From: Alphaproteobacteria bacterium
GTDB lineage: Bacteria > Pseudomonadota > Alphaproteobacteria > Rhizobiales > Aestuariivirgaceae
Direction of reading: 5' to 3'
Assembly: GCA_028868255.1 (NCBI GenBank)
Contig: JAGWUY010000001.1
Span: 1-48,284, forward strand
DNA length: 48,284 nucleotides
Shown piece by piece: positions 16,000-18,502 of this stretch. Under the pieces are notes generated by a model that was not told where the DNA came from, did no database searches, and saw only the letters and a list, made by a program, of their open reading frames with translations. Both the position numbers and the translations under genes were made by a program. How positions within the stretch are numbered: position 1 is the stretch's first letter; each line of letters starts with the position of its first letter.

Positions 16000-17109
16000 C
16001 TAAAAAACAACAACACTCCGGATCGACTCACCACGATGCATCAGATCAAACGCATCGTTTATTTTTTCGAGCGGCAGAACATGAGTGATCATCGGATCAA
16101 TCTCAATGCGTCCATCCATGTACCAATCGACAATCTTGGGCACATCGGTGCGGCCACGCGCTCCTCCAAAAGCTGTGCCCCGCCAAGAGCGGCCTGTTAC
16201 CAACTGGAACGGACGTGTGGAAATTTCCTGACCAGCCCCCGCCACACCAATGATGATGGATTGGCCCCAGCCCTTATGAGCGCATTCCAAGGCGATGCGC
16301 ATCACCTTCACATTGCCGATGCACTCAAAGGTGTAATCAGCGCCGCCGCCCGTCAGTTCCACCAGATGGGCCACCATGTCACCTGAAACCTTGGACGGGT
16401 TGACGAAATGCGTCATGCCAAATTTGCGGCCCCAGTCTTCCTTCACATCATTCATATCCACGCCCACGATCTGACGCGCACCGGCAAGACGAAGACCTTG
16501 GATCACATTGAGGCCAATGCCGCCCAAACCAGACACCACGGCGGTTGAGCCCACTTCAACCTTGGCAGTATTGATCACAGCACCCACACCCGTGGTGACG
16601 CCGCAGCCAATGTAACAAATCTTGTCAAACGGCGCATCGCTGCGCACTTTCGCCAAAGCGATTTCAGGCAGAACCGTGTAGTTCGAGAAAGTGGAGCAAC
16701 CCATATAATGATGGATCATCTGGCCCTTATAGGAAAAGCGCGAAGTGCCATCTGGCATCTGCCCTTTTCCCTGCGTGGTGCGAATTTTCTGGCACAGATT
16801 GGTTTTCGGGTTGAGGCAATAGTCACACTCGCGGCATTCCGGCGTGTAAAGCGGAATCACATGATCACCTTTCTTGAGTGATTTAACCCCTAGTCCCACC
16901 TCCACCACAACGCCCGCACCTTCATGGCCCATGATGGCGGGGAACAGGCCTTCAGGATCAGAACCTGAAATGGTAAATTCATCAGTGTGGCACACACCTG
17001 TGGCTTTGATTTCAACCAGCACTTCACCTTCGCGTGGCCCTTCCAGATCAACGTCTACAATTTCCAGAGGCTTTCCGGCCTCAAAGGCCACAGCCGCACG
17101 TGATTTCAT
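16000..17109 (-). CDS. frmA: S-(hydroxymethyl)glutathione dehydrogenase / class III ADH
   Basis: [43 protein letters not shown]. Confidence 0.96.
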
Positions 17110-17227
17110 GGGTGAGATGCTCCTAAACTTAACGCGCAATCAATTGCGCGAACCCACCAAGCCGTCAAGTTCGATTATTGCAACCGCGCCCACACTTTGT
17201 TCACATTTTCGCCCTAACCCGCCACGC

Positions 17228-17950
17228 ATGACACGCATTCTGATTTCAACTTTGCTGACTTTTACCTTCTGGCACAGCCCCGCTTATGCTCAGAAATTGA
17301 TTGAAGCACATATGAGCATTGCACAAGGGCGCGACGATGGCCCAAAGGTGGCCCTGACTTTTGATGCTTGCACGGGGAAAGCAGATAACCGTATCCTCGA
17401 TGCTCTGATCCAGAACAATATTGCCGCGACCATTTTTGTCACCGCTCGCTGGTTGAAAGTCAATCCGAATGCGATCACCAGACTCAAGTCACGGCCTGAT
17501 TTGTTTGAGATTGAGAACCATGGCGCAAGGCATGTGCCCGCCATTGATGAACCCTTATTGGTCTATGGAATTGCATCAGCTGGAACACCGGCAGCGGTGA
17601 AAACTGAGGTTACAGAGGGCGCAAAGGCCGTGACCGCAGCATTTGGCACACAGCCCCACTGGTTTCGCGGGGCCACGGCCCTTTACACCGCGTCTTCCGA
17701 AAAACTGATCACAGACATGAAATTCAAGATTGCGGGATTTTCAATCTCTGGCGATGGCGGCGCCAGCTATTCCAGCCCAAAAGCCGCACGGGCAATTTCA
17801 GGCGCCAAGGATGGCGATGTGATTATTGCCCACATCAATCAGCCTCTGAAGCCCGCTGGTGCGGGCGTGGTGAAAGGCATCTTGATGCTCAAGTCTCAAG
17901 GCTACGAGTTTGTGACATTAGATGGAGGCGCTTCGCAACGCGGCCACTGA
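17228..17950 (+). CDS. Exported polysaccharide deacetylase family protein
   Basis: Signal peptide; VALTFDAC, ATIFVT, ENHG..H, WFRG, IIAH NodB motifs. Confidence 0.85.
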   Translation: MTRILISTLLTFTFWHSPAYAQKLIEAHMSIAQGRDDGPKVALTFDACTGKADNRILDALIQNNIAATIFVTARWLKVNPNAITRLKSRPDLFEIENHGARHVPAIDEPLLVYGIASAGTPAAVKTEVTEGAKAVTAAFGTQPHWFRGATALYTASSEKLITDMKFKIAGFSISGDGGASYSSPKAARAISGAKDGDVIIAHINQPLKPAGAGVVKGILMLKSQGYEFVTLDGGASQRGH

Positions 17951-17955
17951 AGACA

Positions 17956-18300
17956 TGTCTCCGCGAACTGTGAAAACGGCGGCATCCGTTTTCGGAAGAA
18001 GAAGGAAGCTAAGGGTTGCGCGGGCGCAATACTTTCGCAAGATTGCCGGGAGAGTAGTCCGGCGGGATGGGGCGAAAACTTTCGCCCGCGCTTTTTTGAC
18101 TGTTTGACATCTCGGGTCGCTCTTATTCCAGTGGGATCGTCTCCATCGTTTGAGCCATCTAAGGCACGCTGGTCGTAGTGCCAGCGGGTCTTCCCGAAAC
18201 GCGCCGGAGATTTGAAAGACGTGGTTTTCAAACCCGCAGCCGCCACTTCATCCTCCATTTCAGGTGCCGCCGCGAACAGAAACCCCTTCCGGAGGAGACA
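17956..18300 (-). ncRNA. Candidate large structured non-coding RNA (~345 nt), family not recognised
   Basis: Three nested 5'/3' helices, several internal stems that need G-U pairs on the - strand, upstream TTGACA; no convincing ORF. Confidence 0.6.
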
Positions 18301-18306
18301 AGAACA

Positions 18307-18335
18307 GATGTGTCATATTAGGAATAAAATGTCAA
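18307..18335 (-). promoter_or_regulatory. Putative sigma70 promoter of the candidate ncRNA
   Basis: Perfect TTGACA (18335-18330), 17-bp AT-rich spacer, weak -10 CACATC. Confidence 0.5.
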
Positions 18336-18348
18336 GAACTTTCTTTCT

Positions 18349-18502
18349 TCAACCTTCTCCCCTTGAGGGAGAAGGTGGATCGCGCGAACGCGCGAGACGG
18401 ATGAGGGGTATGGTTCAACACACTCTGACTTGCCATCGGACTCGCGGAACCACCCCATCATCCGCCCTTCGGGCACCTTCTCCCTCAAGGGGAGAAGGTT
18501 GA
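18349..18502. repeat. RIME/REP-like palindromic element (CCTTCTCCC...GGGAGAAGG family)
   Basis: Perfect 29-bp terminal inverted repeats (18349-18377 and 18474-18502), each itself a hairpin; inner GGATGAGGGG/CCCCATCATCC. Confidence 0.85.

Follow-up and report, generated by a model that had tools for sequence, protein, structure and literature searches.

The window, i.e. the whole stretch of 48,284 nt that was analysed, contains at 17950–18335 of its minus strand one stand-alone, ORF-less copy of a dispersed RNA element, lying between a convergent polysaccharide deacetylase gene and, on the upstream side, a palindromic repeat, an ORF of 111 amino acids and aroC. The features of this region are as follows:

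16874–17950, plus strand: polysaccharide deacetylase gene (PF01522), the convergent neighbour, outside the element
17950–17965, minus strand: right-end motif, terminating in ATG and abutting the convergent gene at its stop codon
17972–18300, minus strand: predicted structured RNA of ~330 nt, a type A copy (both ends inferred)
17972–17993, minus strand: 3′ hairpin GAAAACGG/CCGUUUUC (from the alignment)
18010–18016, minus strand: 3′ strand of the pseudoknot, CCCUUA in the window copy and CCCUUC in most copies
18018–18091, minus strand: 3′ domain with a 10-bp P8 and inner stems, variable among subtypes (98.4% paired)
18167–18186, minus strand: P5 hairpin with the loop C-A-Y-U-A-N-G-A (from alignments across several families)
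18203–18247, minus strand: 5′ strand of P2 (partner 18102–18097) and P3 hairpin (from covariation)
18248–18298, minus strand: P1 domain, 18298–18291 with 18256–18248 (from alignment pairing and a duplex test)
18284–18289, minus strand: 5′ strand GAAGGG of the long-range pseudoknot (from the alignment and a complement count)
18307–18335, minus strand: sigma70-type promoter—TTGACA, 17 nt and an extended −10 minus its last T (from the sequence)
18349–18502, no strand assigned: REP-like palindromic repeat, separate and abundant, often adjoining family copies (self-inverted BLAST match)

The repeat at 18349–18502 has dozens of BLAST matches in its own genome. Two ORFs that overlap the RNA copy, of 118 and 135 aa, were rejected as genes, having no match in Pfam and showing alignment indels that are not triplet-bound, and the 111-aa ORF was rejected as a part of the element, being located elsewhere in relatives. 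The RNA is absent from the slot between aroC and the deacetylase gene in all three relatives found (genomes G004, G008 and G011), which have other small genes there instead. It may be added that this slot, in the window and at the loci L155–L157, holds an SH3-like secreted protein, a small membrane protein or, in the window, the 111-aa secreted protein.

Concerning the promoter of the window copy, TTGACA (18335–18330) is followed 17 nt downstream by TG-A-CACATC, and this pairing of a −35 hexamer with an extended −10 at the 17-nt spacing fits a start near 18300, as the first-pass annotation had proposed; a consensus promoter scanner did not list the promoter because its −10 lacks the last T. 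The minus strand folds with a minimum free energy of −136 kcal/mol (z −2.81, none of 100 shuffled sequences being equally good), against z −1.33 for the plus strand of the same region, where 10 of 100 shuffles were equally good. These values, together with the covariation of the fold among the copies, bear out the large RNA-type structure under strand-specific selection that had been proposed from the single sequence. The three nested helices suggested at the same time as the closure of the RNA have fared differently. All the strands quoted for them lie where they had been placed, and the helices do form in the minimum-energy structure of the window copy, but they are not the conserved fold of the family. 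In 32 type-A copies, helices 1 and 2 have 59.8% and 67.1% of cells paired, respectively—together 63.9% vs 64.1% in shuffled alignments—and helix 1, which is strong only in the window copy, gains nothing from its own partner over foreign ones (−4.28 vs −4.33 kcal/mol). Both are thus ruled out as parts of the family fold by the partner-swap and shuffled-alignment tests. Helix 3 represents a weaker alternative (−10.5 vs −8.9), its 3′ tract being deleted in the copy L035. The pairing kept by the family instead joins GGAGGA (18256) with the 5′ end (18298–18291), and GAAGGG (18289–18284) with CCCUU (18015–18011).

The fold obtained from the alignments consists of 12 helices. In the 32 full type-A copies, 91.9% of its cells are paired, and 30 pairs and 218 cells exhibit two-sided change, compared with 83.8%, 23 pairs and 77 cells in shuffles and with 41–49% paired cells in slid controls; the fold was derived from the same alignments that were used for scoring, and since, in addition, the related copies are not independent, the comparison with the shuffles is overstated. 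The core persists across the subtypes, with 91.6% of cells paired and 14 of 17 pairs two-sided in 47 diverse rows, as well as across several families, where 13 of 15 pairs are two-sided in 52 rows; in the latter set the A, U, A and G of the P5 loop are invariant. Among the individual helices, P1 has 90.6% of its cells paired and three pairs with two-sided change, and P3 has 98.2% paired with such change in nine of its 14 pairs. All 32 type-A rows are without an ORF, so that the fold is evidently kept without one. Judged from the sequences, the many G-U and two-sided changes would be hard to obtain by chance, and the element is very probably a conserved structured RNA.

In the pseudoknot, the G-rich strand from the internal loop of the P1 domain is paired with a pyrimidine strand that follows the 3′ domain; the loop of the inner P1 hairpin, GAC/GGC-GG, is conserved. 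Its strands read GAAGGG/CCCUUC in type A and GGAGGG/CCCUCC in type B, and both sides are altered in rarer classes. Within type A it is 98.4% paired but invariant. In a count over loci of different types, the strand had its exact complement in its own locus in 125 of 132 cases (some of them duplicates), as against 110 of 839 trials with the partners of other loci. A duplex-energy test of type B gave −8.7 vs −8.1 kcal/mol, the partner having been mis-picked in many rows.

The right end is less clearly defined. An ATG, GTG or TTG occupies the right-end column in 31 of the 32 type-A copies, just 2 nt from a GGAG, and a related motif is present at 44 of 165 loci vs 4% at random. The motif may be the remnant start of a lost ORF or a terminal mini-hairpin, i.e. 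the triplet may belong to a terminal hairpin instead of being a start codon. At the right ends of L003, L005, L023, L026, L029 and L035 the conserved tail reads as a five-codon mini-ORF (M-P-x-A-H-stop), after which comes a motif containing TTGA.

With regard to known RNAs, no Rfam 15 family was matched at the gathering threshold by the window or by 22 related loci, only tRNAs and sub-threshold chance matches having been obtained, which agrees with the absence of a family name in the first-pass annotation; the families covered included RNase P, tmRNA, SRP, 6S, riboswitches, introns, HEARO, GOLLD, ROOL and OLE. No description of the RNA was found in a narrow literature search, the scope of which left aside most subscription papers and the bioRxiv supplements with motif tables. 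The element represents a large RNA family, apparently not described before, that has a small protein of its own. Large multi-helix bacterial non-coding RNAs of unknown function are exemplified by OLE, GOLLD and ROOL, and the element resembles them in being large, multi-helix, covarying, pseudoknotted and probably part of a ribonucleoprotein. It differs in matching none of their models, in being dispersed in many copies, in having subtypes that swap domains and in its restriction, in the genomes searched, to the Hyphomicrobiales.

The window copy is a stand-alone RNA in the sense that it has no ORF, as had been supposed, but it is not single: its own genome contains four core copies and one mini-copy, among them full copies at 83% and 78% identity (BLASTN), an ORF-bearing copy of another subtype on contig C361 and the internally deleted mini-copy. 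In the latter (L064, G000:C204:690-830) the promoter and the first ~20 nt are fused directly to the 3′ pseudoknot strand and the right end, and the two pseudoknot strands make a hairpin because the intervening part is absent. Matches were found by BLASTN in nine of 36 same-genus genomes, by a sequence-only model in 20 of 100 family genomes (with up to 16 matches scored in each) and by structured core models in nine of 149 and 13 of 150 genomes of the order, with up to 17 matches, two weak ones (L275 and L278) being doubtful as they have no invariant loop nearby. The presence is patchy—14 of 20 genomes of the own genus and none in most sister genera. In the family f18, the element is present in 23 of 41 genomes. 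The carriers, scattered among soil and water alphaproteobacteria, are by record name Aestuariivirga and other Hyphomicrobiales, with Bauldia for one ORF. Outside the order, 0 of 149 genomes of the class contained the RNA; the single, weak protein match there was judged spurious. Plasmid and phage searches gave no match to the element and the Atlas search no usable one, while the viral match L031 was dismissed as chance and L263–L265 score weakly or not at all, leaving no clear viral copy.

Most copies stand alone, but one or two per genome precede a small ORF, and in these—the copy on G000:C361 included—a ribosome-binding site comes after the RNA, and then the ORF, about 90–190 aa long and with the motif C-x4-C-x-R-x3-C-x6-8-C. 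The conservation in the 117 relatives at 50% clustering is mainly confined to R-x2-PL-x2-C-P-x3-C-x-R-x3-C-x8-C. No match was found for the ORF in Pfam, NCBIfam, PHROGs or among solved sequences. Its product was modelled confidently (pLDDT 94.6, pTM 0.80); Foldseek gave no match at E 0.001, and the best VIA match has Z 3.3 and an rmsd of 4.0 over 68 aligned residues. From the cysteine motif and the basic N-terminus, the protein is predicted to bind zinc and RNA. A profile search detected the ORF in 66 of 200 family genomes, with one or two matches each, a tally that includes one weak match (G776) on which no claim is built. The RNA core lies upstream on the same strand at 24 of 29 ORF loci; of the rest, three have less than 150 nt of upstream sequence, one has a divergent RNA copy and one retains only the 3′ part of the RNA. 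Viewed from the RNA side, six of 56 type-B loci carry the ORF, and none of the full type-A copies does, L009 retaining a remnant of 31 aa. In the family f5 and at six of 34 loci mostly from f18, an ORF with this cysteine motif likewise lies behind the RNA, so that the linkage is present in three families; the homology of the f5 and f18 ORFs rests on this motif because the ORF profile misses most of them, and the profile likewise had no match in the RNA-positive genomes G066, G112, G147, G156, G171 and the complete G204. A cysteine pattern at L298 was dropped as spurious.

The arrangement of promoter, RNA and small ORF invites the reading that the RNA is a cis-acting leader—a riboswitch or an autoregulatory 5′ untranslated region—that was copied passively, the lone copies being hitch-hikers or portable promoters. 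Besides its position between the promoter and the ORF start, it has a CCUCC strand resembling an anti-Shine-Dalgarno sequence with an alternative partner, and a 3′ hairpin (GAAAACGG/CCGUUUUC in the window copy) whose 3′ arm could also pair with the P1 inner loop. The compensatory changes are, however, kept in most copies though these have no ORF, and the downstream genes have no orientation bias (46 on the same strand, 35 on the opposite one), and a leader of this kind appears unlikely. The same arrangement could also be regarded as an addiction module similar to type III toxin-antitoxin systems, in which the cysteine protein would be toxic, the pseudoknotted RNA would neutralise it and the lone copies would be orphan antitoxins. 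A structured or pseudoknotted RNA is combined with a small ORF in type III systems, where a tandem-repeat RNA neutralises a toxic endoribonuclease, and in type I loci under SOS control, tisB-istR for example. The element is like them in that a pseudoknotted RNA precedes a small ORF, and in the putative LexA control of a part of the family (see below). The ORF evolves fast and stays at one or two copies while the RNA multiplies, and defence-like genes were seen by eye upstream of several copies, both of which would suit an addiction module. It has, on the other hand, no repeat array in the alignments, no hydrophobic peptide and no antisense partner seen; the ORF matches nothing in Pfam, NCBIfam, PHROGs or among solved folds, and 10–17 orphan copies seem beyond the need of an antitoxin. 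This explanation is considered rather unlikely. The putative defence genes directly adjoining L063 (upstream, G000:C361), L050, L049, L046, L008 and L021 look, by eye, like those of an Abi-type reverse transcriptase, a retron-type reverse transcriptase, DUF262, TIR-like and AbiJ-like proteins and a DNA methyltransferase.

In the promoters of the family, anchored at the best hexamer and counted without a shuffle control, TTGACA is exact in 60 of 97 and YA occupies −12/−11 with a 17-nt spacer in 76 of 97; TTCCTA is conserved in the spacer. The alphaproteobacterial LexA box is given as GTTC-N7-GTTC in PMC8565304. In the genome studied here, the recA promoter contains GAAC-N7-GAAC. A GTAC variant of the alphaproteobacterial box also exists. 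A strict box is present in 19 of the 97 distinct family promoters, compared with a mean of 0.23 and a maximum of 2 in 500 shuffles, and the GTTC half-sites recur ~11 bp apart, at about −4, +7/8, +19 and +30 from the start of the −35. The remaining 78 promoters are without a strict box, as is the window copy, which has lost it. By eye, many type-B spacers contain a TCCTA-N3-TAGGA dyad, the sequence of which suggests another operator. In the promoters of L162–L185, L250–L254 and L296–L315, belonging to other families, the −35 reads (A)CTTATCCCC and not TTGACA, resembling a DnaA box or an element of another sigma factor.

As for the ends and flanks, 29 type-A copies showed neither target duplications nor terminal repeats in excess of the shuffled pairings: the longest direct repeats measured 5.97 nt (5.80 nt in the control) and the longest inverted ones 5.69 nt (5.67 nt); the copy ends were set by motif and not by an empty-site junction. 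MITEs and classical insertion sequences, by comparison, have terminal inverted repeats or target-site duplications. Contigs of four public DNA runs contained no joint across the element. The copies of one genome have flanking palindromes in common over variable lengths (>100 nt upstream in four copies of G128) and end raggedly, as mosaics; palindromic motifs accompany 77 of 167 loci, compared with 11% of randomly chosen windows, the latter being mostly coding background. The subtypes exchange middle domains and right ends, L063 and L021 having one middle domain in common. Upstream of lepA, four genomes have the RNA (internally deleted in one of them), one has repeats only and three have nothing. 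Intergenic multicopy mosaic repeats are well known as REP/BIME and RIME, to which the element is similar in being intergenic, multicopy, mosaic, ragged at its ends and associated with palindromic repeats, and from which it is distinguished by its promoter, its strand-specific long-range fold and its dedicated ORF. From this pattern we infer a homology-driven copying among repeat-rich slots rather than transposition or retro-copying; since nearly every full copy is accompanied by its promoter, it is improbable that the copying passes through RNA. The own genome has four genes of the DUF559 type, one of which adjoins the copy L002. DUF559 endonuclease genes also lie with the palindromic repeat on the contigs C368, C307 and C42, suggesting, by analogy with REP-RAYT, a possible nuclease-repeat pair.

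Guide RNAs of transposons need to be considered, too. The omegaRNA of IscB (HEARO) is a structured RNA of ~350 nt beside a single ORF, and a genome may contain many copies of it that have no ORF; the element is like it in RNA size, in the single adjacent ORF and in its ORF-less copies. The differences are that the linked ORF encodes a four-cysteine protein of ~100–170 aa, without a match in Pfam, NCBIfam or PHROGs, instead of the IscB nuclease with its RRXRR, HNH and RuvC parts, and that the element has its own internal promoter, no fixed target motif and no sharp ends. IS110/IS1111 bridge RNAs belong with a cognate DEDD recombinase, and their promoter is formed at the circle junction, whereas here it is complete in the linear copies. 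IscB (PF14239) was matched elsewhere in none of five genomes, the control likewise having been matched nowhere, and TnpB (PF07282) in one of five. That the element is an RNA of the IS200/IS605 omegaRNA or IS110 bridge RNA kind, with its nuclease or recombinase encoded elsewhere and acting in trans, would agree with its size, many lone copies and variable 3′ flank, which resemble those of such elements, and with the one TnpB/Cas12f-type domain of the own genome (G000:C234:83-283), unlinked to the element. The domain is, however, not found in any of the four other multicopy genomes (G128, G149, G105 and G204, two of them complete), there is no HEARO match, the linked ORF is neither enzyme and the ends are ragged, which makes this the least likely explanation.

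A stronger competitor, although it still has a clearly minor probability, is a domesticated host RNA, i.e. a trans-acting regulator or ribonucleoprotein scaffold like other large bacterial non-coding RNAs, whose copy number would be maintained by selection for dosage and whose copies would be kept alike by gene conversion; the ORF would then be a regulator and not a mobility factor. Copies at lepA and at a helicase gene persist in orthologous positions in different species, an observation equally compatible with retention by the host and with selfish spread; the strong structural selection in ORF-less copies and the lack of plasmid, phage or clear viral copies point the same way. Against it stand the patchy presence, ranging from 0 to 17 copies per genome, and the occurrence of broken and deleted copies and of copies with repeats inserted within them.

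Taken together, the tentatively preferred explanation, held at somewhat less than an even chance, is a selfish module of RNA and protein, linked to the SOS response, that spreads by recombination from one repeat-rich intergenic slot to another. Among the options of the first-pass annotation, a non-autonomous mobile RNA came closest to it; the existence of a family with many copies had not been noticed there, nor had the pseudoknot, the four-cysteine ORF linked to the RNA and the LexA boxes. The window copy would be transcribed from its own promoter as a pseudoknotted RNA of ~330 nt, which would probably bind the small four-cysteine protein supplied by one or two master copies. In these master copies, the GGAGG-like 5′ strand may keep the CCUCC 3′ strand off the ribosome-binding site of the ORF, thereby acting as a translational switch. 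The spread would likely be selfish and proceed, during the SOS response, by recombination between repeat-rich intergenic sites, with gene conversion at the DNA level primed in the flanking palindromic repeats and possibly with nicks made by DUF559-type endonucleases. What speaks against such a selfish module is that no catalytic protein is linked to the element: since the ORF matches no family or fold, nothing able to cut or join DNA was found. The promoters without a strict LexA box, among them that of the window copy, the RNA-positive genomes in which no ORF was detected and the long persistence at lepA and the helicase gene also count against it. A bolder version, unlikely as it stands, would be a new class of selfish ribonucleoprotein, in which an SOS-induced pseudoknotted RNA of ~330 nt, accompanied by nothing but a small zinc-binding protein of a new fold, would by its own catalytic or targeting activity (the invariant A-Y-U-A-N-G loop) initiate the copying of its gene and of neighbouring cargo genes into palindrome-rich intergenic slots without a transposase.

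Large covarying classes of bacterial RNA are rare, and several of them are now known as ribozymes or as guide RNAs for programmable enzymes. It should be emphasized that the newness here concerns the RNA family and its architecture, the mechanism being a proposal. Owing to its defined promoter, invariant loop, covariation-supported pseudoknot and candidate partner with a confident model, the RNA family is directly testable, and the element may explain how genes are gained and swapped in the repeat-rich intergenic slots of the Hyphomicrobiales.
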